Shown: positions 23,062 through 54,613 of the stretch, one piece after another
Layout: every line of letters starts with the position of its first letter
How positions within the stretch are numbered: the first letter of the stretch is position 1
Source of the DNA: Candidatus Latescibacterota bacterium
Lineage (GTDB): Bacteria > Latescibacterota > MWCZ01
Direction: 5' to 3'
DNA length: 64,000 nt
Assembly (NCBI GenBank): GCA_022706085.1
Contig: JAKJDF010000007.1
Coordinates: forward strand, 10,474 to 74,473
The notes under the pieces: model-generated
Databases searched by the model: none
What the model saw: only the letters and a program-made list of their open reading frames with translations
What the model was told of the DNA's origin: nothing
Position numbers and translations under genes: made by a program

Positions 23062-25497
23062 TCAGCCGAGGACGGTTGACTCCACCAGCGTGGCCACGTC
23101 ATCCCACACGAGTGCGACCGCTTCAGGCGTTGCGTCGGTTTCCTCAAACAGAACGATCGTGTTTGAATCCGCCAGCCAGCACTCCGGCACGTAGTAATCG
23201 GTGTGGCCGTTGATGTTCCAGTAGCGGCCGATGTGGTGGCCGTTTACCCAGATGCACCCCTTGTTGAGGCCCGTGACCCTCACCCAGAGAGGCCGTTTGA
23301 CACGGGTATCCATGGTGAACGAGGCGCGGTACCAGGACACGGGCGAGGGTTGATGCTGCGACCCCCACGGTGCGCTGGCACCGGGGCGGTACCATTCTTC
23401 GTGTTCGCCCAGGAGCTTCGCGTGCATTTCCCATTCCAGCACTTCGTCCGCATCCACCCAGACGCGGCCAAGGATGCCCTTGAGGTCGTCGCGCATGGTG
23501 GGGCTGCCGCGTTTGCCCACCTCCCCAATCTGCCAGTCGCCCTTCACGTGCCCGAGATTGTCCACGAGAATTGCGATCACGTTCTCCCCTGCTTTCAGTT
23601 CCACCGGAACGGTAACGCTCGGTTGGAAACGCCGGTCTTCGACCGGTTCGATTGAGGTGCACACGTGTCCGCCGTTGACGAACACCAGGGCACGATCACT
23701 GACTGCTTCGACATGGAGGAGCGCGGTCCGCGCTTCCCGCGAATGAAAGGCCGCACGGTACCACCCGTAGCCTTCGTGGTCGCCGACAAGGTCTCGCGGA
23801 ACCGGCCGGAGACTGCCCACCCACCCGTTTGGTTCCGAACGCGGGTTCTTACACGGGAGATGGGCATTCTCTATGCAACTATCCCATGGACTGAGCGCCG
23901 GAGGGGCGGGGAGACGGGGAGCCCGGGACGGAACATGCGTCACCGCGTTTTCGGTGACCGTCCACGCGCCAGTGGAGACGGTTGTTGCAGTGTGCTGTAT
24001 TTCCACGCCGTCGGGCACGGCGCGGGCGTAGCTCGCGCCAATCACGAGTCTGTCACCCGCGCACCAGACACGTCCGCAGAAAGAAACAGGGATAACGACG
24101 ACGCGAACGCGTTCTCCGTCCGTCCACTCTCCCGCGATCGCCGGCTCTTCGCTGGAGATCGTGTGTTCAAAGGTCCGGCGCGAAGCCCCGCGGGAGAGGG
24201 TGCAGGAAATGGCGCGGCTTTTTTCGCCCATCAGGACTATGACACGGCAGTCGCCGATCCGGTAGATTCCGTGCAGATGCGAGGCAGTGAAGAGCCGCAG
24301 GTCGGAATCGGGCGCGATCGTTGCGCCCGCAACCACCGGTGCGACGCTTTCGGGAGGAAGGCTCAGCGGTTCGCCCGGGACGCCTTCTTCTGCATACGCC
24401 TGAATCGTTACCGTACGAGCCGCCGGGTTTTTGTAGAAAAGCAAGGTGCCACAGGTGTTTGCGCGTTTCCAGACCTCGATGCCGCCGGGGAGTTTCTGGC
24501 ACGAGGCGTCTGAATCGGCGAGAATGTGAGCGAACGCCTGAGCGAAATGCGCGACAGGAATGGTCAACCGGCCACGCCTGCCGATTCCTCCGGCCTCGCT
24601 GAGCGGAGCATCGTAGTCGTAACTGGTTGTCTGGAGGTACATGGTGGTATAGGCGAAGTTGGTGCCGCCATACCACATGTAGTAGTTGTACCCCGAACCT
24701 CCTTCGGCCAGCACCCGCCAGGTGTGGTAGGCCAGGTGTTCCGGAGAGCGGTTTACCCAGCGGCGGTCGCGATGCCAGGTGAGATACCATGCGGTCCAGA
24801 ATTCGGTGCAGTGGATGGGCATGTTCGGTTGCCGGGAACGGAATTCGGGGAACTGGTCGGCAGGTTCATGGCTGTTGACGGCTTCGATTGCCCCTTCCGC
24901 GGAGCCGGCACATGTTATGAGCGGGACTTCGATTCCGAGGTTGCGCACGAGATCGCGCAGGTGGGACATATAGGCATCGGCATCTTTCTTTTCGGGTACG
25001 ACGTTGCCCAGTTCGTTCTCGATCTGGACGAGGATGACACAGCCGCCGCGGGAGACCTGATGGCGCGCGATTACGGGTATCAGCTTTTCGAACCAGCGGT
25101 CGACGTACCGGAGGTAGACGGGGTCGTGGTGCCTCAGGGTGAGACCGCGTTTTGTCAGCAACCACGCAGGGAATCCGCCGAAATCCCATTCGGCGCAGAT
25201 GTACGGACCGGGCCGCGCGACCACAAAGAGGCCGAACTCCTCGCAGAGTTGAAGGAAGTGCTCGAAATCGTGATCACCGGCGAAATCGAACGCCCCTTCC
25301 TGCGGTTCGTGCCAGTTCCATGCGACGTAGGTCTGGATGGTGTTCAGACCCGCGGCCTTCGCCTTTTCCAGCCGATCCCGCCAGAGGGCGCGGGGAACGC
25401 GGAAATAGTGAATGGAACCTGAAGTGAGAAACTCACGTTTTCCGTTGATGATGAAACTGTGGGCGTCGTAGTGCACTGACGAATTCGGCGCTGGCAT
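23062..25497 (-). CDS. beta-galactosidase, glycoside hydrolase family 35
   Basis: GH35 N-terminal TIM barrel (FIINGKREFLTSGSIHYFR...IQTYVAWNWHEP...GPYICAEWDFGGFPAWL, IENELG) plus C-terminal beta-sandwich domains; GGAGGG ribosome-binding site before MPAPNSS. Confidence 0.85.
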   Translation of the reverse strand: MPAPNSSVHYDAHSFIINGKREFLTSGSIHYFRVPRALWRDRLEKAKAAGLNTIQTYVAWNWHEPQEGAFDFAGDHDFEHFLQLCEEFGLFVVARPGPYICAEWDFGGFPAWLLTKRGLTLRHHDPVYLRYVDRWFEKLIPVIARHQVSRGGCVILVQIENELGNVVPEKKDADAYMSHLRDLVRNLGIEVPLITCAGSAEGAIEAVNSHEPADQFPEFRSRQPNMPIHCTEFWTAWYLTWHRDRRWVNRSPEHLAYHTWRVLAEGGSGYNYYMWYGGTNFAYTTMYLQTTSYDYDAPLSEAGGIGRRGRLTIPVAHFAQAFAHILADSDASCQKLPGGIEVWKRANTCGTLLFYKNPAARTVTIQAYAEEGVPGEPLSLPPESVAPVVAGATIAPDSDLRLFTASHLHGIYRIGDCRVIVLMGEKSRAISCTLSRGASRRTFEHTISSEEPAIAGEWTDGERVRVVVIPVSFCGRVWCAGDRLVIGASYARAVPDGVEIQHTATTVSTGAWTVTENAVTHVPSRAPRLPAPPALSPWDSCIENAHLPCKNPRSEPNGWVGSLRPVPRDLVGDHEGYGWYRAAFHSREARTALLHVEAVSDRALVFVNGGHVCTSIEPVEDRRFQPSVTVPVELKAGENVIAILVDNLGHVKGDWQIGEVGKRGSPTMRDDLKGILGRVWVDADEVLEWEMHAKLLGEHEEWYRPGASAPWGSQHQPSPVSWYRASFTMDTRVKRPLWVRVTGLNKGCIWVNGHHIGRYWNINGHTDYYVPECWLADSNTIVLFEETDATPEAVALVWDDVATLVESTVLG

Positions 25498-25599
25498 GGA
25501 GTTCCCTCCGGGACGGCACGGGTTGGCGAACGTGGACAGGAGTCGCACTGTCGGTACCTACTGAAAAGTACGCGCTCCCGTCTGAAAGGAGAAACTGCG

Positions 25600-26442: not shown

Positions 26443-27528
26443 ATGCCGAAGGGGCAGAGATGGAACGCTGAATGGTCAACAGAGGCTGACCGGACCACCG
26501 GTTTCGAGGTACGCCGACTGACGAACAACCCACCCTCTTCCAACCGCCATTTCTACTTTCATCAGATAAGCTGGACTCCTGACAGCTCTCACGTGATTTT
26601 CGTGTCAGACCGGGGGGGAGGTTCCCAGCTTTGCAGCATTGCCATGGCGAACGGGGAGATCACGCAGCTGACTCAAGACGGGATGGCACATGACGCCACG
26701 ATGAGCCTTCATGCGCCGGTTGCGTATTACTACACGGGCAACGAGTTCCGGGCAGTGAATGTTCTGACGCTGGAGGAGCATACGGTCGGCGTGTTGCCCG
26801 AGAGGATGAAGTGCTACTCCGGCCCGTCGGAAAACGCGGACGGCACGTTACTGGTGTTCGCGGCGCAAATCGGGGGCGAGAGGTGCATGGCGAAGACGGA
26901 GATCGGCCCGGGAGCGACATCGGTGATTCTCGAGACGAGCACCGTCCTGAGCCACGTCAACTGCTCGCTTACGGACCCGGAATGGATCATGCACTGCGAT
27001 TCCACACGGGGTGACGACAAGCCGAAGCAACGCGTGTGGGTGCTTTCCACTGACGGCCTCCGCCACTGGCACCCGTACACGCAGACGCCGCAGGAATGGC
27101 TTACGCACGAGTCGTGGCTGGGAATGACCGGGAAACTGCTCATCTGTTACTGGCCGACCGGGATCATGGAAATCAACGTGGACGGCAGCGGAGCACGCCT
27201 CATTGCGGCGGTGAATGCCTGGCATGCGGCCGCCAGCCGCGACGGGCGTTACTGCGTGGTGGACACCAACTGGCCTGACCGCGGCATCCACCTGATCGAG
27301 CGGGACACAGGCCGCATGTGCAAGGTGTGCGAATCGGATTCGGGCGCGGGTGACGCACGCGCGGGAAGTGAGGTACACCCCCACCCGTCGTTCAGCCCGG
27401 ACGGGAAGTACATCCTGTTTGGCTCGCAGAAGACCGGGAGACCGGAGGTGTACGTGGTGGAGACTGAGCAGGTGATCGCGCGGCAGGATTTGTGGTGGAA
27501 GCCGGAGTACCACTGGCACCGATGGTAG
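26443..27528 (+). CDS. oligogalacturonate lyase-like beta-propeller protein
   Basis: C-terminal HPHPSFSPDGKYILFGSQKTGRPEVYVVE resembles oligogalacturonide lyase / TolB-like propellers; AAGGAG ribosome-binding site. Family assignment is tentative. Confidence 0.5.
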   Translation: MPKGQRWNAEWSTEADRTTGFEVRRLTNNPPSSNRHFYFHQISWTPDSSHVIFVSDRGGGSQLCSIAMANGEITQLTQDGMAHDATMSLHAPVAYYYTGNEFRAVNVLTLEEHTVGVLPERMKCYSGPSENADGTLLVFAAQIGGERCMAKTEIGPGATSVILETSTVLSHVNCSLTDPEWIMHCDSTRGDDKPKQRVWVLSTDGLRHWHPYTQTPQEWLTHESWLGMTGKLLICYWPTGIMEINVDGSGARLIAAVNAWHAAASRDGRYCVVDTNWPDRGIHLIERDTGRMCKVCESDSGAGDARAGSEVHPHPSFSPDGKYILFGSQKTGRPEVYVVETEQVIARQDLWWKPEYHWHRW

Positions 27529-28484
27529 GAGAGCGGCGGGTGACGGTTGAGCCGCTCTCGGAGACGCATTCCCGCGCGGCGGGAGAGCTTATCCGAACGG
27601 TGCTTCAAGAGGAATTCGGCGCCGCGACCGGGGCGTGCGAAGATTCGGATCTCGAGGACCTTTTCACCGCGTACGCAGGTCCGGGGAGCGCCGCGTGGGT
27701 AGCGCACTGCGACGGCGGGGTGTGCGGCGTGGCTGCTGTGCGCGAGTCCGAGAACGGCGCACTGGAACTCAAACGATTCTACGTGCGTGCTGACTACCGC
27801 GGGAGGGGTATCGGCGGCGCACTCCTGCGAGAGGTGGAGCGCCGCGCGGCAGAGGAGGGGTACCAGCAGATCGTGCTGACGACGACACATCTCATGGCGC
27901 GGGCGCAGGAGGTGTACCGGGACTTCGGGTACCAACTGGACAGCACGGAACGCAAGGGCGCGGTGACGCTTCATACGTACCGGAAGCAGCTGGCGCGGGC
28001 GGCACTCGGGGCACGAAGAGCGGCCGGACCTTTGCCGAAAACGGGCGGGGGTGAGATTGCGGTGGTGGTGGAACGCCCCCGCGGGTCATGTGAAGGGTGG
28101 CACTGGGAACGTCAGACGCACACGCTGGTTCTTACGGAGTATTACGACAGACCGGTTCCCGTGAACTACGGGCTGGCCCCGGAGTGGGTGAACCCCGCGG
28201 ACCAGGATGCACTGGACGTGATTCTGCTGGACGACCGCCGGATGCATCCGGGGGAAACGCTTGTTGCAGTTCCGGCAGGAGTGCTTCTCCGCCCGGACGG
28301 CGACGACAAGCTGCTGGCGGTTCCGGCGGGGGGCGCAGTGCGTCCTGTTGGCCCTGATGAACGGTCGCGGGCACGTGTTTCCGCGTGGTGGGACGACGCC
28401 CATCAGCCTGTCGGATGGGAAGGTGAGGAAGGCGTCGAACGCCTTTTGGCGCGATGCCTGCGGCAAGGAGCAAAGGATGGGTAA
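27492..28484 (+). CDS. GNAT N-acetyltransferase fused to inorganic pyrophosphatase domain
   Basis: N-terminal GNAT motif (LELKRFYVRADYRGRGIGGALL); C-terminal family-I pyrophosphatase motifs (VVVERPRGS..., YPVNYGLAPEW, DQDALDVILLDD). Confidence 0.65.
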   Translation: MVEAGVPLAPMVGERRVTVEPLSETHSRAAGELIRTVLQEEFGAATGACEDSDLEDLFTAYAGPGSAAWVAHCDGGVCGVAAVRESENGALELKRFYVRADYRGRGIGGALLREVERRAAEEGYQQIVLTTTHLMARAQEVYRDFGYQLDSTERKGAVTLHTYRKQLARAALGARRAAGPLPKTGGGEIAVVVERPRGSCEGWHWERQTHTLVLTEYYDRPVPVNYGLAPEWVNPADQDALDVILLDDRRMHPGETLVAVPAGVLLRPDGDDKLLAVPAGGAVRPVGPDERSRARVSAWWDDAHQPVGWEGEEGVERLLARCLRQGAKDG

Positions 28485-28674
28485 GCGGACGCCGAAACCC
28501 GAATGGTTCGTGTGCGAAACCTGCGGGAAACAGACGCGGGCATTGCGTCGTGATGTGCTGGACGAGCACTACAATGCCCTCGGGAAGACTCCTCTCTGGA
28601 ACTGCGAAGAATGCTACCAACAGAAGAGGCGGGAGCGCCTCAGTCAGCCCGACTCACCCGACCCGTCGTCCTGA
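28477..28674 (+). CDS. small zinc-ribbon protein (65 aa), tentative
   Basis: AGGAGCAAAGG ribosome-binding site then ATG; two CxxC pairs (CETC...CEEC); overlaps the annotated aroK start by 64 bp, so one of the two start calls may be wrong. Confidence 0.3.
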   Translation: MGKRTPKPEWFVCETCGKQTRALRRDVLDEHYNALGKTPLWNCEECYQQKRRERLSQPDSPDPSS

Positions 28675-29210
28675 TCGGCTTCATGGGCGCCGGTAAGACG
28701 AAGGTGGGGAAAATCGCCGCGCAGTATATCGGGTGCGATTTCGTGGACACTGACCACATCGTGGAGCGCTCCGCCGGCAAGTCTATCTCCGAGTTGTTCG
28801 CGGAGGTCGGGGAGGAGCGGTTTCGCGAGCTTGAAACGGAGGCCATCGAGTGGGCGCTGAACACGCGCGGCGGCATTATCGCGCTGGGCGGCGGCGCCGC
28901 AACGCGTGAGGAGAACTGGCAGTTGCTGCGCAGGTCAGGAGCGATGACGATCTACCTGCAGGCGTCGCCGAGAACACTGCTCGCACGGGTTGCGGACAAG
29001 GGTACGCGGCCGCTTCTGGCCGGCCTCGACCGCCCGCAGATGCTGGAAAAGATCACGTCCCTTCTGGAACAGCGCGAACCGTGGTACCTCCGGGCAGACA
29101 TTACCCTTGCCACCGATAACTCGCTTGACAAGTATGGCATGGCGGATGCACTGGTCGCGCGCCTCAAAGAAGCCGGCATCAGCGCGGCTGAATTGCACCG
29201 GACGTCATGA
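28611..29210 (+). CDS. aroK: shikimate kinase
   Basis: P-loop VVLIGFMGAGKTKVGK, core length about 170 aa plus short N-terminal extension. Confidence 0.8.
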   Translation: MLPTEEAGAPQSARLTRPVVLIGFMGAGKTKVGKIAAQYIGCDFVDTDHIVERSAGKSISELFAEVGEERFRELETEAIEWALNTRGGIIALGGGAATREENWQLLRRSGAMTIYLQASPRTLLARVADKGTRPLLAGLDRPQMLEKITSLLEQREPWYLRADITLATDNSLDKYGMADALVARLKEAGISAAELHRTS

Positions 29211-30034
29211 ACGGGCGGCACAGAACCACACTGTGGCGGGAACATGTTGCGCTCTGGCGAGACGCCTGGCGGCGGGTGGTATCACACCGCCGGCAGGTCG
29301 TGCTGATCACTTTGTTGCTGTGGGTGCCGTGGCGGTTTGTGGTTCCTCTGGTTGATCGCCAGCTCGGTTTCGGGGCATTCGCCGGATTTCCGCTGGAATG
29401 GATTGCCGACGCACTATATGACCCGCTGTACGGGGCCACCATCCTTGCGGTGCTGGCAGAGATGTACCCGATTTCCGTTCGGAGCGCCCTCCTGAGGGGT
29501 TTCTGGCTCGTTCCCCGTCTGTGGCTGATCGAGATCAAAGTAGCGATCTGGGGGCTGGCCGTGCCCTACCTGATCCTCCATCTCGGGGCGGCGACCGTGT
29601 TGACTCTGTGGCCGAGCTACGGGGCCGCCCGCGCGCTCTTCGCGGTGACGATCGTCAGCATGGCATGGGTGCTGATTGTGGTGGTTCGGTACATGCTGGC
29701 AGCCGCGGTGATGGTTGCGGAAACGCAGGGGCACACCTGGAACGGGGAGCAGGCGCCTTCCACCGGGTGGGCGCTTTCGGCGGCGCGGCAGTTGATCCAG
29801 GGGAACGCAGGGCAAGCGGTTCTCGTGATGGCCGTGGGGCAGGGAGTTATCTCGCTCATCGTGTCGCTCCTTCCTTCGGGCGATACCGTGCCGGCGCAGG
29901 TTCTAAACGCGGCGGGCATGGTGGTTACGGCGCTCTGGTGGGCGCTTTTGTGGAGCTTTTGCCAGCTCTGTCTCAACAGGGCGCGCGGGGTGACCGCACA
30001 GGAGGCAACGCATGGACGTCAGAAAGCTCGTTGA
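29207..30034 (+). CDS. hypothetical integral membrane protein
   Basis: 275 aa, multiple hydrophobic helices (VVLITLLLWVPW, IWGLAVPYLILHLGAATVL, VTALWWALLWSF); ATGA overlap with aroK stop. Confidence 0.5.
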   Translation: MNGRHRTTLWREHVALWRDAWRRVVSHRRQVVLITLLLWVPWRFVVPLVDRQLGFGAFAGFPLEWIADALYDPLYGATILAVLAEMYPISVRSALLRGFWLVPRLWLIEIKVAIWGLAVPYLILHLGAATVLTLWPSYGAARALFAVTIVSMAWVLIVVVRYMLAAAVMVAETQGHTWNGEQAPSTGWALSAARQLIQGNAGQAVLVMAVGQGVISLIVSLLPSGDTVPAQVLNAAGMVVTALWWALLWSFCQLCLNRARGVTAQEATHGRQKAR

Positions 30035-30377
30035 TCATCTCGACCGCAGCCGCATGGTGCTGTGCCACAGTGGGACGATCTATTCGCAGGCGTTGTTCGG
30101 TGAGTTACGCCCGGATGAGGTGTGCCCGGGCGTGTTCGCCTATGCGCCGGGATGGGGCGTGCTGGACCCGGGGATGACCATGGAGGCGCACGAACATCCG
30201 GTCGCTGAGTTTTACGTGTTCGCGAGCGGAAAGGGACGGATGCGGCTGGGCGACACGTGGTTCGATGTCGAGCCGAATATGTCCGTGAATATCCCACCCG
30301 GGGTGGAACATGAGCTGGCGAATGATGCCGCGTCGCCTCTCCCACTCGTGTTTGTTTCGGTCGGCCTGAGGATCTGA
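30012..30377 (+). CDS. cupin domain protein
   Basis: 121 aa, metal-binding-like HEHPVAEFYVF...G...NIPPGVEHE two-motif cupin pattern. Confidence 0.6.
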   Translation: MDVRKLVDHLDRSRMVLCHSGTIYSQALFGELRPDEVCPGVFAYAPGWGVLDPGMTMEAHEHPVAEFYVFASGKGRMRLGDTWFDVEPNMSVNIPPGVEHELANDAASPLPLVFVSVGLRI

Positions 30378-30434
30378 CGCTCGCGCCGGCTCCTTCCGGA
30401 ATGAGTCTGCGTTCCTGATTCCGCCCTTCGTCTC

Positions 30435-30463
30435 TTGACAATTCAGCCTGCTTGGAGTATCCT
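30435..30463 (+). promoter_or_regulatory. sigma70-type promoter candidate for the DUF134 operon
   Basis: TTGACA (30435-30440), 17-bp spacer, TATCCT (30458-30463), about 40 bp upstream of the DUF134 start. Confidence 0.4.
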
Positions 30464-30465
30464 CA

Positions 30466-30485
30466 TTATGAACATATGCTCATAA
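30466..30485. promoter_or_regulatory. 20-bp palindromic operator candidate
   Basis: TTATGAACATATGCTCATAA, 18/20 positions self-complementary around CATATG, immediately downstream of the -10 element and upstream of the CAGGAG ribosome-binding site. Confidence 0.35.
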
Positions 30486-30503
30486 CTCAGGAGACCACAC
30501 TGT

Positions 30504-30932
30504 ATGCCAAGACCACGGAATCCCCGGCAGGTGCGATGTATGCCGTGCACGGATTACTTCAAACCGCGGGGCATCCCGCTGCGGGCGCTGGAAGAGGTGA
30601 CGCTGGCGGTGGAAGAACTGGAAGCGTTGCGGCTGGCTGATCTGGAAGGGATGGAGCAGATGGCGGGCGCGGAGCAGATGGAGGTATCGCGCCCCACGTT
30701 TGCACGGGTGCTCGCCTCCGCGCGGAAGAAGGTGGCGGATGCGCTGGTGAACGGGAAAGCGCTCCGGATTGAAGGCGGGGTGTTCCGGATGGCGGAGGGC
30801 GTCCCGTTCTGGGGACGGCACGGACACGGGTGGGGACGGGGCCGCGGCGGAGGATGCGGGCGGCGATTCCGGGGAGGACGTGAGTTTGGCCGGGGCGAGA
30901 CGCCCCCTGAACCGATGCCTGATTCCGAATAA
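30504..30932 (+). CDS. DUF134 (UPF0251) family predicted DNA-binding protein with Gly/Arg-rich C-terminal tail
   Basis: MPRPRNPRQVRCMPCTDYFKPRGIPLRALEEVTLAVEELEALRLADLEGMEQ...VSRPTFARVLASARKKVADALVNGKALRIEGG matches the DUF134 signature; tail GHGWGRGRGGGCGRRFRGGREFGRG. Confidence 0.8.
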   Translation: MPRPRNPRQVRCMPCTDYFKPRGIPLRALEEVTLAVEELEALRLADLEGMEQMAGAEQMEVSRPTFARVLASARKKVADALVNGKALRIEGGVFRMAEGVPFWGRHGHGWGRGRGGGCGRRFRGGREFGRGETPPEPMPDSE

Positions 30933-30945
30933 GAGGTAACAGCGA

Positions 30946-31302
30946 ATGTATACGATCAATTATGATCTTTGCACACGATGCTTTGCCTGCGTGAAAGCCT
31001 GCAAGAGACCGGGGGCACTGGAAATCCGAGAGGGAAAACCGAAGATCAATTTCGTGTTGTGCACCGAGTGCGGCCTGTGCGCGGAAGCGTGTCAGCACGG
31101 GGCGATAACGAAATGGGAGGCACGCGAGGAGGATGCCCAACCGCCGGAGGTCCCGGTTGCGAGTTCGCCGCCGCCTGTTTCCGCTCCCGCTGGGAATCCG
31201 CTTTCCCGGGGGTTTGCGCGATGCGGGGCATGGATCCGTTCGGCATGTGGGCGGCGGGGCGCACCTCGAGGTTACCGGAGGGGTGGACGCTGGAGGGTTT
31301 GA
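30946..31302 (+). CDS. 2x[4Fe-4S] ferredoxin
   Basis: Two Cx2Cx2Cx3C motifs (CTRCFACVKAC, CTECGLCAEAC) in the first 55 aa; low-complexity C-terminal extension. Confidence 0.75.
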   Translation: MYTINYDLCTRCFACVKACKRPGALEIREGKPKINFVLCTECGLCAEACQHGAITKWEAREEDAQPPEVPVASSPPPVSAPAGNPLSRGFARCGAWIRSACGRRGAPRGYRRGGRWRV

Positions 31303-31353
31303 TATCCGAGGAGTGTTCTGGTTGGAAACTATTCACAGAAAGGGAAGGACGCC

Positions 31354-31710
31354 ATGAAGATCGCGGTTCCAGTAGACACGAACGAGGGCCTCAGAAGTAT
31401 CGTTGCCGGCCATTTCGGGCATGCACCGCACTATGCGTTCGTCGATGGAAAGACGAAGCAATGCGCCGTTGTTCCAAACGCGAGTTCGCACAATGGCGGG
31501 GACAAGCTGCCCCCGGAATGGTTGTTTGATGAAGGCGTGAATGTCCTCATCTGCAACGGGCTGGGCGCGCGTGCCATCGGCCTGTGCACACAACTGGGAA
31601 TCGAGGTCTATATCACGGAGGAGCAAACAGTGGCGGAGTCCATTGGCGCGTTTGAAGCGGGAATGCTGCCCAGGGCGGGTTCCGATGATGCGTGCGCTCA
31701 CAAGCATTAG
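31354..31710 (+). CDS. NifX/NafY-like protein (dinitrogenase FeMo-cofactor biosynthesis domain family)
   Basis: MKIAVPVDTNEGLRSIVAGHFGHAPHYAFVD...VNVLICNGLGARAIGLCTQLGIEVY, typical of this domain; AAGGGAAGGA ribosome-binding site. Confidence 0.75.
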   Translation: MKIAVPVDTNEGLRSIVAGHFGHAPHYAFVDGKTKQCAVVPNASSHNGGDKLPPEWLFDEGVNVLICNGLGARAIGLCTQLGIEVYITEEQTVAESIGAFEAGMLPRAGSDDACAHKH

Positions 31711-31739
31711 ATTCCACAACACGACGAAAGGTGAGACCG

Positions 31740-32270
31740 ATGAAGATCGCAGTAAGCAGTTCCGGTCAGGAGCTCGACTCGCCGGTAGATCCGCGATTCG
31801 GACGATGCACTCATTTCGTAATCGTGGACTCCGACACTGACGACTACGACGCCATTGAAAATGCAGCAAGTGAAGCGGGAAGTGGCGCGGGAATCGCGGC
31901 GGCAAGCGCACTGGCGAAGGCGGGCGCGGAGGTTGTTTTGACGGGGAACCTCGGGCCCAATGCCGCGCGCACTCTCTCCACGCTCGGCATCAAGGCGTAC
32001 CGCGCAGAGGGCGACACGGTGGGAGAATCGGTGACCGCTTTCATTGATGGGCAACGGTTCGAAATCACGTCGCCGACTGTCACCGCGAAATCGGGCCTGA
32101 ATCCGCCTGCCGCGGTATTCCCCTCTCGTCCGTTGGGCGGCAGCACTGGCGGAGGAATGGGACGCGGTATGGGCGGCGGCGGAGGTATCGGCGGGGGTGG
32201 CGGCAGAGGCGCCGGTGGAGACCGTGGTGCTGGCGGCGGCAGAGGGGCCGGTGGCGGACGCGGAAGATGA
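31740..32270 (+). CDS. NifX/NafY-like protein with Gly/Arg-rich C-terminal tail
   Basis: MKIAVSSSGQELDSPVDPRFGRCTHFVIVD...AEVVLTGNLGPNAARTLSTLGIKAY, then tail GGGMGRGMGGGGGIGGGGGRGAGGDRGAGGGRGAGGGRGR; AAAGGTGAG ribosome-binding site. Confidence 0.7.
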   Translation: MKIAVSSSGQELDSPVDPRFGRCTHFVIVDSDTDDYDAIENAASEAGSGAGIAAASALAKAGAEVVLTGNLGPNAARTLSTLGIKAYRAEGDTVGESVTAFIDGQRFEITSPTVTAKSGLNPPAAVFPSRPLGGSTGGGMGRGMGGGGGIGGGGGRGAGGDRGAGGGRGAGGGRGR

Positions 32271-33121
32271 TAGTAAGCGTTGCAAGCGGGAAAGGCGGAA
32301 CCGGCAAGACCACGGTTGCGGTTGCGCTGGCGCAGGTAGCTCCGAACAGCGCCTACGTGGATTGCGACACCGAAGCGCCTAACGGGCACCTGTTTTTGCG
32401 CCCGAATATTTCACACCGCAAACCGGTCAATCGCAAAGTAGCCTCGATCAATGTGAACATGTGCACGTGGTGCGGTGAATGCATGGAAAAATGCGCCTAC
32501 CACGCGATCGTGATCGCACACGCGACGAAGAAGGCCGTCGTATTCGAGGACCTGTGCATGGGATGCGGCGTCTGTTCACTCGTGTGCCCGGCTCGCGCGA
32601 TTACAGAGGAAGACCGGCACGCGGGAATCGTTTCGAACGGCCACAGTGGCAGGATTCGCACGCGGGAGGGCCGAATGGCGGTTGAGGCTCCTCACGCGCA
32701 CCCTGTGCTGAATGAGACGTTGAAGGAGCTTCCCGATGCGCCTCACACGATTCTCGACGCGGAGCCGGGTGTCACGGGGCGTGTAGTAACAACGGTGAGG
32801 GCAAGCGATGTGTGTGTTCTAGTCACTGAGCCAACACCGTTCGGGCTGCACGATCTGGAGCTGGCCGTGACGATGACGCAGCATGTCGGGGTTCCGGTCG
32901 GCGTCATCATCAATCGTTCAACGATAGGCGACAACGCCGTGCGCGACTTTTGTCGGGTTCGGACCATACCCGTTCTGCTGGAGATTCCGTTTGACCGACG
33001 CATTGCAGCGGGGTACGCGGTGGGAAAGACGCTTGTTGAGATTCTGCCGGACATGAAAAGCCAATTTGCGGAGGTTCTCAGGCATATCGAGCGGATCGTC
33101 ACTGAGAGGGGGCGATCATGA
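32267..33121 (+). CDS. MinD/ParA-type P-loop ATPase with embedded 4Fe-4S ferredoxin domain
   Basis: Deviant Walker A SGKGGTGKTT; ferredoxin insert CTWCGECMEKC...CMGCGVCSLVCP; ATGA overlap with upstream gene. Confidence 0.8.
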   Translation: MIVSVASGKGGTGKTTVAVALAQVAPNSAYVDCDTEAPNGHLFLRPNISHRKPVNRKVASINVNMCTWCGECMEKCAYHAIVIAHATKKAVVFEDLCMGCGVCSLVCPARAITEEDRHAGIVSNGHSGRIRTREGRMAVEAPHAHPVLNETLKELPDAPHTILDAEPGVTGRVVTTVRASDVCVLVTEPTPFGLHDLELAVTMTQHVGVPVGVIINRSTIGDNAVRDFCRVRTIPVLLEIPFDRRIAAGYAVGKTLVEILPDMKSQFAEVLRHIERIVTERGRS

Positions 33122-34035
33122 CTCCGCAGATTACGGTGGTAAGCGGGAAAGGCGGTACCGGAAAGACAACGCTTACTGCTCTGTGGGGCAGCATGGCAGA
33201 CAGGCCGGTGCTTGTAGACGCGGATGTGGACGCGTCGAACCTTCCGCTGGCGTACCCCCACGAGACGCGGGAGCAGCATCCGTTCGTTGGACGGGATGTG
33301 GCCGTAGTGAACGAGCCGTTGTGCAAGAATTGCGGTGTGTGCGCGAGGGCGTGCAGGTTTGATGCGTTTGTGCAGGTTGAAGGCCAGTTCCGGGTGGACC
33401 CGCTTGCGTGCGAAGGATGCACGCTGTGCACGCTGGTGTGCCCGCTCGATGCGATCACCATGAAACCGCACGTCTCCGGAACGTGGTCTGTGAGCGAAAC
33501 CGGGTTCGGACCTCTCGTCCATGCTCAACTGGGAATTGCGGAGGGGAATTCCGGCAAACTGGTGACGCAGGTGCGCCGGGCGGGGGAGAAGCTGGCAGAG
33601 GAGCGGGTGGCGGCAGTGATTCTGGTTGACGGCCCTCCGGGGATCGGCTGCCAGACAACGGCGGCGATGGCGGGAGCCTCTCTGGTGGTGCTGGTAACTG
33701 AACCGTCGGCGTCAGGGCGGCACGACATGGAGCGGTTGCTTTCGGTAACGAATCGGCTGGGTGTTCCGGCGCTTGTTGTTCTCAACAAGGTTGACCTTGC
33801 ACCCGCTGAAGAGGCGTTGATTCGGAACGCGGTATCGCGCATGGGCGCGGAGTATGCGGAGTATATAGGGTCCGTCCCGTTCATTCAGGAGGTCCCCGGG
33901 CTGCTTGCTTCGGGAACCCTGCTCAGCGAGTGCCCGCGCCCGCTGAGGGAAGCGGCGGAAGGACTGTGGAAGGTAATTCTGGAACGCGCACTGGTGGCGG
34001 AGCGCGTCCAGCAGGGAGAACCTGCGCACGGATAA
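33118..34035 (+). CDS. MinD/ParA-type P-loop ATPase with embedded 4Fe-4S ferredoxin domain (paralogue)
   Basis: SGKGGTGKTT; CKNCGVCARAC...CEGCTLCTLVCP; ATGA overlap with upstream paralogue. Confidence 0.8.
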   Translation: MTPQITVVSGKGGTGKTTLTALWGSMADRPVLVDADVDASNLPLAYPHETREQHPFVGRDVAVVNEPLCKNCGVCARACRFDAFVQVEGQFRVDPLACEGCTLCTLVCPLDAITMKPHVSGTWSVSETGFGPLVHAQLGIAEGNSGKLVTQVRRAGEKLAEERVAAVILVDGPPGIGCQTTAAMAGASLVVLVTEPSASGRHDMERLLSVTNRLGVPALVVLNKVDLAPAEEALIRNAVSRMGAEYAEYIGSVPFIQEVPGLLASGTLLSECPRPLREAAEGLWKVILERALVAERVQQGEPAHG

Positions 34036-54537: not shown

Positions 54538-54613
54538 TCGGGCGTAGCTCAATCGGCAGAGCGGGTGGCTGTTAACCACTAGGTTACAGGTTCAAGTCCT
54601 GTCGCCCGAGCCA
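54538..54613 (+). tRNA. tRNA-Asn (anticodon GUU)
   Basis: Manual cloverleaf: 7-bp acceptor stem (U1-A72), D-arm GCUC/GAGC, anticodon stem GGUGG/CCACU with loop CUGUUAA (GUU), T-arm ACAGG-UUCAAGU-CCUGU, discriminator G, encoded CCA; 76 nt. Confidence 0.85.

Follow-up and report, generated by a model that had tools for sequence, protein, structure and literature searches.

A fusion of a GNAT acetyltransferase and a pyrophosphatase-fold domain with an altered pyrophosphate site in Candidatus Latescibacterota

Family-I soluble inorganic pyrophosphatases (PPases; PF00719), which hydrolyze pyrophosphate in a Mg-dependent manner and form homohexamers in prokaryotes, are usually treated as single-purpose housekeeping enzymes. 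The closest described systems with such a domain in a larger protein are the InPase domains of phage polyvalent proteins (PF18823), reported by Iyer, Burroughs, Anand, de Souza, and Aravind (Iyer et al. 2017; PMC5512222). Related domains fused to or adjoining NUDIX and GNAT domains were mentioned in passing in that study, and either a nucleotide-like substrate or the clearance of pyrophosphate (PPi) was proposed. A Lachnospiraceae protein, WP_051639333.1, is cited there as an example. Our literature search on family-I PPase-acetyltransferase fusions and on Latescibacteria pyrophosphatases found nothing relevant beyond this paper, and the word "fusion" is absent from a 2024 review of microbial pyrophosphatases (PMC11210485). 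Here, we describe a gene that encodes a GNAT acetyltransferase domain followed by a family-I PPase-fold domain (Table 1). It lies in a 64,000-nucleotide stretch of contig JAKJDF010000007.1 from a Candidatus Latescibacterota bacterium; this whole stretch is called the window below. An earlier interpretation made from the letters alone, called here the sequence-only reading, had described the combination as unusual. The fusion is real, but it is not unprecedented, since Iyer et al. (2017) mention GNAT/NUDIX fusions; as an idea, therefore, the GNAT-PPase architecture is not new. With a probability of roughly 45%, we favor a two-module protein in which a metal-dependent phosphohydrolase of the PPase fold is the core and acts on a substrate other than free PPi, while the GNAT half acetylates the same or a related substrate or gates the hydrolase.

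The window protein resembles the InPases of Iyer et al. (2017) in having a family-I-type PPase domain within a multidomain protein. Membership of the InPase clade was considered and rejected on three grounds. PF18823 did not match the window protein at E up to 1 (whole protein) or E up to 10 (domain alone). The InPase clade lacks the beta-hairpin between core strands 1 and 2 (PMC5512222), whereas our structural model of the window protein has this hairpin, with strands at residues 191-196 and 201-207. Finally, the InPase clade belongs to phage or conjugative elements, whereas the fusion sits in a chromosomal neighborhood of housekeeping type.

The open reading frame (ORF) extends over 330 codons of the plus strand, from 27492 to 28484. 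Neither the ORF list nor a reading of the sequence, a check that the sequence-only reading had advised, shows a stop codon or a shift of frame between one half and the other. A start at ATG 27522 is more likely than one at GTG 27492, since this ATG overlaps the stop codon of the upstream gene (ATGGTAG) and homologues become conserved from about residue 8 of the shorter frame. In public gene calls, the protein has 314, 320, or 329 amino acids (aa), and all residue numbers used here are counted from ATG 27522. The motifs RGRGIGGAL (nucleotides 27798-27824) and DQDALDVILLDD (nucleotides 28200-28235) are present exactly as they had been quoted. A third motif, quoted as YPVNYGLAPEW, is also there, but its first letter was wrong and the sequence is VPVNYGLAPEW.

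Among 5.8 billion proteins searched, 11 full-length relatives with 47-100% identity were found, each with both precomputed Pfam domains. Searching 1.84 billion cluster representatives with a profile added three further 50%-identity clusters with the GNAT-PPase architecture, and both halves are present in family members P0001-P0011 and P0013-P0015 (P and L numbers are our handles for proteins and loci). When one genome per species was scanned, the fusion was seen in a metagenome-assembled genome (MAG) of Candidatus Latescibacterota (88% identity) and in two unclassified MAGs. Near-identical members, from Candidatus Latescibacterota and one labelled Hydrogenedentota, are annotated "GNAT family N-acetyltransferase", and the member from Latescibacteria bacterium ADurb.Bin168 (OQB38655.1) is annotated "Inorganic pyrophosphatase". 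The only apparent stand-alone copy, P0205 (145 aa, 64% identical; L029:1-603), was rejected. Its reading frame continues without a stop up to base 1 of the contig and encodes the GNAT C-terminus there, so P0205 is the 3' portion of a fusion gene truncated at the contig boundary. This entry had been recorded as a 145-aa "inorganic pyrophosphatase", and contig ends can create false single-domain entries of this kind. Apart from this truncated candidate, no split version of the fusion was found. The survey of other genomes proposed in the sequence-only reading thus turned up about 18 homologues that share the architecture and no pair of separate genes. A frameshift or misassembly is ruled out by the continuous ORF and by the same fusion in independent assemblies, and the fusion is a single real gene that is conserved in Latescibacterota-type genomes.

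In the N-terminal half, Pfam GNAT families match residues ~37-138 at E 2e-15 and 5e-15. The motif A pattern R-x-x-G-x-G/A is present in 12 of the 14 family members, with P0013 and P0014 being the two that lack it. Tyr132 does not vary in alignment A1, whose 11 members all have motif A, and it aligns with Tyr140 of diamine acetyltransferase 2 (SSAT2, 2bei). We take Tyr140 to be the general acid of the SSAT enzymes and, therefore, assign the same putative role to Tyr132. With both motif A and Tyr132 present, the GNAT half of the window protein looks competent. Its fold, motif A, and catalytic Tyr are common to small GNATs of the RimI/Ard1/SSAT type (3d8p, 5isv, 4pv6, 2bei). It differs from them in that the general-base position of SSAT, Glu92, is Lys in the fusion and in that none of these proteins carries a PPase-fold domain. 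No subfamily assignment was reached with NCBIfam, where the best model, RimI, scored 32 bits and has a cut-off of 86.

The C-terminal half was identified by several searches. PF00719 matched the whole protein at E 2.4e-7 and 31.1 bits and the domain alone at 33.7 bits, with a gathering score of 23.5, and this match spans only positions 1-94 of the 153 in the profile. A phmmer search of the PDB found the M. tuberculosis and S. acidocaldarius pyrophosphatases at E ~1e-5 to 1e-6, and a profile of the C-terminal domain matched solved pyrophosphatases down to E 2e-12. An AlphaFold2 model built from 11 sequences had a predicted local distance difference test (pLDDT) score of 87.8 and a predicted template modeling (pTM) score of 0.83, and these values suggest that the two domains are held in a fixed arrangement. 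Together, the Pfam, PDB, profile, and AlphaFold2 results show that the whole of the C-terminal 160 residues is a PPase fold, and the two domains abut directly. By our reading, what appears to be a linker (consensus R-P-x-G-T-R ... P ... G-E-I) is the usual N-terminal lead-in of family-I enzymes. The claim that one polypeptide joins a GNAT domain to a family-I PPase fold is thus upheld by the continuous ORF, the intact acetyl-CoA motif, and the agreement of hidden Markov model (HMM) and fold searches.

The window domain has the beta-barrel, the beta-hairpin, and the two C-terminal helices of family-I PPases such as E. coli Ppa, M. tuberculosis Rv3628, and S. acidocaldarius 1qez. It also has their lead-in segment and their E-x-P-R-G, NYG, D-x-D-x-x-D, and D...D-x-K motifs, so the metal and nucleophile site is common to both. 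The differences are that the window domain is ~15 residues shorter, has three residues fewer in the D97-D102 loop, and is fused to a GNAT domain, and that K29, E31, R43, Y51, Y141, and K142 of the family-I enzymes are replaced or absent. The window sequence D-Q-D-A-L-D-V would also be expected to fail the PROSITE pyrophosphatase signature at two positions.

These changes were followed through an alignment of 171 domain sequences with E. coli Ppa numbering. The Ppa sequence had the expected residue at all 16 positions. Canonical enzymes keep E20, P22, K29, Y30, E31, R43, Y51, Y55, D65, D67, D70, D97, D102, K104, Y141, and K142, with none lost. The GNAT-fused clade (n = 18) keeps E20, Y55, D65, D67, D70, D97, D102, and K104, and shows K29 changed to G, Y30 to W, E31 to H, and R43 to E; it also lacks Y51 and the Y141/K142 segment. 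Nearly all 18 sequences carry these substitutions, and the few exceptions are each confined to one sequence and fall mainly at positions 29 and 43. R43 is E in most of the 18, while the loss of Y51 and the absence of Y141/K142 are found in all of them. Positions 141 and 142 are gaps in every one of the 18 and also in every short relative. In the AlphaFold2 model, the shortened region that would hold this pair (RVSAWWDDAHQPVGW) forms a helix at residues 280-289. The VVVERPRGSCEGWHWE segment is invariant or nearly so within the fusion family, and the DDRRM and DGD(H/D)KLL peptides served as the search patterns that brought up relatives. HMMER alignments to solved structures map the same residues as the 171-sequence alignment.

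In the E. coli and yeast structures, the retained residues are those that coordinate the metal ions, activate the water nucleophile, and bind the phosphate under attack, while the Lys, Arg, and Tyr residues missing from the window domain serve to bind pyrophosphate, chiefly its leaving-group phosphate. Since the first set is kept and the second is lost, the domain looks like a metal-dependent hydrolase with a rebuilt leaving-group pocket rather than an ordinary pyrophosphatase, to judge by its residues. The idea that this half is a pyrophosphatase thus stands for the metal and nucleophile residues and falls for those that bind pyrophosphate.

The two halves also differ in conservation. The PPase-fold half is the more conserved in 13 of 13 pairwise comparisons, with 50-96% identity vs. 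25-85% for the GNAT half. In P0013 (L003:7851-8804) and P0014, motif A and the catalytic Tyr are lost and the GNAT half has an internal deletion, and GNAT families gave no HMM match to either protein even at E up to 10. The PPase-fold motifs of both proteins are intact, and the five-gene context described below is kept where the GNAT half decayed, as seen at L003. The higher conservation of the C-terminal domain and its survival where the GNAT half decayed argue that it has a function of its own and does not merely regulate the GNAT.

A profile search with the C-terminal domain found 1227 proteins at E up to 1e-3. The nearest relatives are stand-alone "mini" pyrophosphatases of 145-165 aa that lack Y141/K142 and usually R43; one of them, from Calditerricola, is annotated "inorganic diphosphatase". 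Two stand-alone short relatives, P0042 and P0212, have unrelated neighbors (rhodanese and SMC; protein kinase) without a common theme. The short-type domain is also fused to endonuclease V in ~19 Chloroflexota/Dehalococcoidia MAGs and, elsewhere, to NUDIX (P0051) and DUF402 (P0065). In a neighbor-joining tree, which is a rough distance tree without support values, the GNAT-fused domains form one clade (18/18), and their sister group is the endonuclease V-fused set together with a few stand-alone proteins. In the endonuclease V fusions, the PPase-fold domain is likewise C-terminal and likewise lacks the Y141/K142 segment, and the motifs NPADG..LDV, DGDHKLL, and W..(Q/K)P..W.GE are common to both groups. 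The N-terminal partner is a nuclease instead of a GNAT. Also, the endonuclease V clade still has R-W-E at positions 29-31 and an Arg adjoining position 43. Its pyrophosphate site is therefore the less eroded of the two, and the erosion has gone furthest in the GNAT-fused clade. No literature on endonuclease V-pyrophosphatase fusions was found. At L016 and L017, an S-adenosylmethionine-dependent methyltransferase-like ORF, read by eye, overlaps the 3' end of the endonuclease V fusion.

Canonical-type domains occur in fusions as well, with CinA (P0057) or as three or four tandem copies per chain. Proteins with three, four, or more PPase-domain matches include P0016 (646 aa), P0017 (545 aa), P0032 (621 aa), P0023 (1320 aa), and P0055 (714 aa), and the aligned copies in P0016, P0017, and P0032 keep almost all catalytic residues. 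Such chains may be a covalently linked form of the usual trimer or hexamer.

Under the two-module reading that we favor, the C-terminal domain would attack a phosphoryl group linked to a leaving group other than phosphate and, for that reason, would not be the housekeeping pyrophosphatase of the cell. A tblastn search with the E. coli sequence for a canonical PPase besides the fusion found only the fusion itself; it covered the 64-kb window and the fetched loci and is uninformative on the genome. The substrate would most plausibly be a nucleotide-linked or otherwise phosphorylated small molecule, and the nucleotide theme comes from the fusion of the mini-PPase clade to endonuclease V, NUDIX, and DUF402; for related fusions, Iyer et al. 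(2017) likewise proposed a nucleotide-like substrate. The hydrolase would be the indispensable module, while the GNAT half may N-acetylate the same or a related amine-bearing substrate or may bind acyl-CoA to control the hydrolase. The genes follow one another in the order PL22-like beta-propeller, fusion, zinc-ribbon protein, shikimate kinase, and membrane protein, and they presumably function as one operon.

A wider version of this proposal, which we consider tentative and rather unlikely to hold as a whole, is that the short PPase folds without Y141/K142 are an enzyme family with a non-PPi substrate that has been added to varied "first-step" enzymes. In Latescibacterota the partner would be the GNAT and in Chloroflexota endonuclease V, with NUDIX and DUF402 in other organisms. 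The candidate targets are a phosphoanhydride or phosphoester bond of a nucleotide-linked metabolite, of CoA, or of a nucleic-acid end. The Latescibacterota fusion would then be a two-step enzyme that acetylates and hydrolyzes, and it would serve a pathway together with the PL22-like propeller and the zinc-ribbon protein.

Several points weigh against the two-module reading. No substrate can be named, and the conserved gene block has no pointer to a pathway of nucleotide-linked amines. The presumed general base, D67, is replaced by Asn in P0006 and by Glu in P0007, and these are the sole departures at the kept positions. Losing the pyrophosphate-binding residues is also what is expected of a non-catalytic sensor domain derived from an enzyme. 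The excess conservation of the PPase-fold half could partly reflect the loose sequence constraints on GNATs generally. Finally, the conservation of the gene order is seen inside a single lineage, where common descent rather than function may account for it; the shikimate kinase gene, moreover, is a housekeeping one.

The strongest rival explanation, which we consider unlikely, is that the PPase-fold half is a pseudoenzyme that senses a metal or phosphate ligand, or serves as an oligomerization module, and thereby controls or assembles the GNAT. It would then be similar to the protein acetyltransferases regulated by cNMP or ACT domains; regulated GNAT fusions are a known theme, and their architecture is compatible with that of the window protein. 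The substrate-binding residues are gone while the fold is kept, and the pTM of 0.83 would imply a fixed contact between the domains. Family-I pyrophosphatases are also obligate oligomers (PMC11210485). However, a regulator would here outlive its target, because in P0013 (L003) and P0014 the GNAT motifs are destroyed and the PPase-fold domain is 57% identical with all of its acidic residues kept; the putative sensor is thus kept where the GNAT is dead. The domain clade is also found as stand-alone proteins and fused to unrelated enzymes, and the eight residues of the catalytic site hardly vary despite an overall divergence of 47%.

It is improbable that the C-terminal half is a working inorganic pyrophosphatase, either removing the PPi of a reaction coupled to the GNAT or being regulated by the GNAT half. 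Such an enzyme would account for the PF00719 match above the gathering score, the full PPase fold, and the retention of all metal-binding aspartates, K104, and Y55. The public name of OQB38655.1 agrees with it, and canonical domains do occur in fusions, as with CinA in P0057. Against this, the changes of K29 to G and E31 to H, the charge reversal of R43 to E, the loss of Y51, and the absence of Y141/K142 are clade-wide. The arginines of ERPRG and DDRRM are not clear replacements for the lost residues, because E-x-P-[RK]-G is also found in canonical enzymes and the D-R loop in other short relatives. Acetyl transfer from acetyl-CoA yields CoA and no pyrophosphate. With nothing evident to couple, the suggestion of the sequence-only reading that the fusion could join an acyl- or adenylate-forming reaction to pyrophosphate removal is weak, and the missing PPi-binding residues weaken it as well.

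Next in our ranking, and improbable too, is the explanation that the GNAT half, instead of being an acetyltransferase, binds acyl-CoA or CoA and either gates the hydrolase or supplies it with CoA or a nucleotide to act on. The lower conservation of the GNAT half and its catalytic dispensability in two lineages would be in line with this, as would the retention in most members of motif A, which binds the pyrophosphate of CoA. NUDIX is also a partner of the clade, and some NUDIX enzymes cleave CoA. The invariant catalytic Tyr in the 11 members of alignment A1, all with motif A, argues instead for a GNAT that probably carries out real acetyl transfer. As for an artefact, in which two genes were joined by a sequencing or assembly error or the ORF arose by chance, long spurious ORFs are frequent on both strands of the GC-rich window, but this explanation has next to no chance and is already refuted by the presence of the fusion in independent JGI, ENA, NCBI, and Logan assemblies at 43-100% identity and with the two halves uninterrupted by a stop, by the lack of any split version, and by the confident folds of both halves.

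In the window clade, then, the metal chemistry is kept, the substrate pocket is rebuilt, and fusion to nucleotide- and nucleic-acid-processing enzymes has occurred repeatedly. If the domain does have a new substrate, a classic fold has a broader catalytic range than supposed, the automatically assigned names "inorganic diphosphatase" and "GNAT family N-acetyltransferase" need correcting, and there is a handle on a conserved operon of the uncultured phylum Latescibacterota. If it is a weak pyrophosphatase or a scaffold, the fusion is a minor curiosity of domain architecture.

Table 1. Coordinates of the fusion gene, its motifs, and neighboring or related features (window positions unless a locus handle is given)
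Feature	Position	Strand	Details
GNAT/PPase-fold fusion gene, 320 aa	27522..28484	+	Numbering from ATG 27522
Alternative starts of the fusion	GTG 27492; GTG 27540	+	330 aa; 314 aa
GNAT acetyltransferase domain, residues ~8-156	27543..27989	+	
GNAT motif A, RGRGIG, residues 93-98	27798..27815	+	Acetyl-CoA pyrophosphate-binding loop; read from sequence
Tyr132 codon, putative GNAT general acid	27915..27917	+	Invariant in alignment A1; aligns with 2bei Tyr140
Family-I PPase-fold domain, short but complete, residues ~158-316	27993..28469	+	Includes canonical N-terminal "P-x-G ... P" lead-in
VVVERPRGSCEGWHWE	28062..28109	+	E184 = E. coli E20, kept; K29-Y30-E31 changed to G-W-H; HMMER alignments to 2uxs, 1qez, 3d53, 4xel
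LTEYYDRPVPVNYG	28131..28172	+	R43 equivalent is Glu; Y51 segment deleted; Y55 kept (NYG)
NPADQDALDVILLDDRRM	28191..28244	+	D65, D67, D70 equivalents kept, then clade-specific DDRRM loop
RPDGDDKLL	28290..28316	+	D97, D102, K104 equivalents kept; loop 3 residues shorter than canonical
RVSAWWDDAHQPVGW	28374..28418	+	Shortened helix-A region; canonical Y141-K142 pair absent; MAFFT column table
PL22 oligogalacturonate-lyase-like/PD40 beta-propeller, 361 aa	26443..27528	+	PF14583 E 3.5e-18; PF07676; PDB 3pe7 E 1.9e-15
Zinc-ribbon ORF, CxxC...CxxC, 65 aa	28477..28674	+	ATG overlaps fusion stop (ATGGGTAA); strong Shine-Dalgarno, AAGGAG, 7 nt upstream
Shikimate kinase	28611..29210	+	PF01202 E 1.1e-41; start uncertain, next in-frame ATG 28683, GTG 28704
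Hydrophobic protein, 275 aa, read as multi-pass membrane protein	29207..30034	+	Last gene of block
tRNA gene	54538-54610	+	Sole Rfam match at gathering threshold in window
Endonuclease V + short PPase fusions	L004-L011, L013-L023 (e.g., L017:7311-8405, L016:7527-8621); P0019, P0044		PF04493 E 1e-69 to 1e-71

The fusion is the second gene of a five-gene, same-strand block. Six loci share this block even though their fusion proteins are only 43-51% identical to that of the window, and the genes beyond the block differ. The beta-propeller gene lies beside the fusion in all loci checked. Its first 138-140 residues match oligogalacturonate lyase (PL22; 3pe7), the remainder consists of PD40/TolB-like repeats, and no N-terminal signal sequence was evident on reading. 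Of the five genes, the zinc-ribbon ORF shows the highest conservation (63-75% identical in L002, L003, L024, L025, and L027), and it matched no known family in Pfam or NCBIfam; it is called as a gene in L024 and L029 and is unannotated in L025-L028. For the shikimate kinase, NCBIfam models reach 146 bits, which is under their own cut-offs. The hydrophobic protein is 35-45% identical in related loci and had no family match in Pfam or NCBIfam. The overlapping start and stop codons on both sides of the fusion, ATGGTAG and ATGGGTAA, suggest that its translation is coupled with that of both flanking genes, and a functional link among the five genes is plausible.

The wider neighbors across the loci include mutS/mutL, aroK, ldh, and pheA-type genes and are not those of a phage or conjugative element. 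An Rfam scan of the window at the gathering threshold for RNA elements near the fusion gave only the one tRNA, 26 kb away. Upstream of the block, on the opposite strand, an 828-aa ORF at 23062-25548 was read by eye as a GH35-like, beta-galactosidase-type protein. Downstream, the plus strand at 30012-34035 holds cupin, DUF134, and ferredoxin-like ORFs, followed by more same-strand ORFs. The same run of genes is found at L029, where it comprises Cupin_2, Fer4, two Nitro_FeMo-Co (NifX-like) genes, and two CbiA/ParA Fe-S ATPases.

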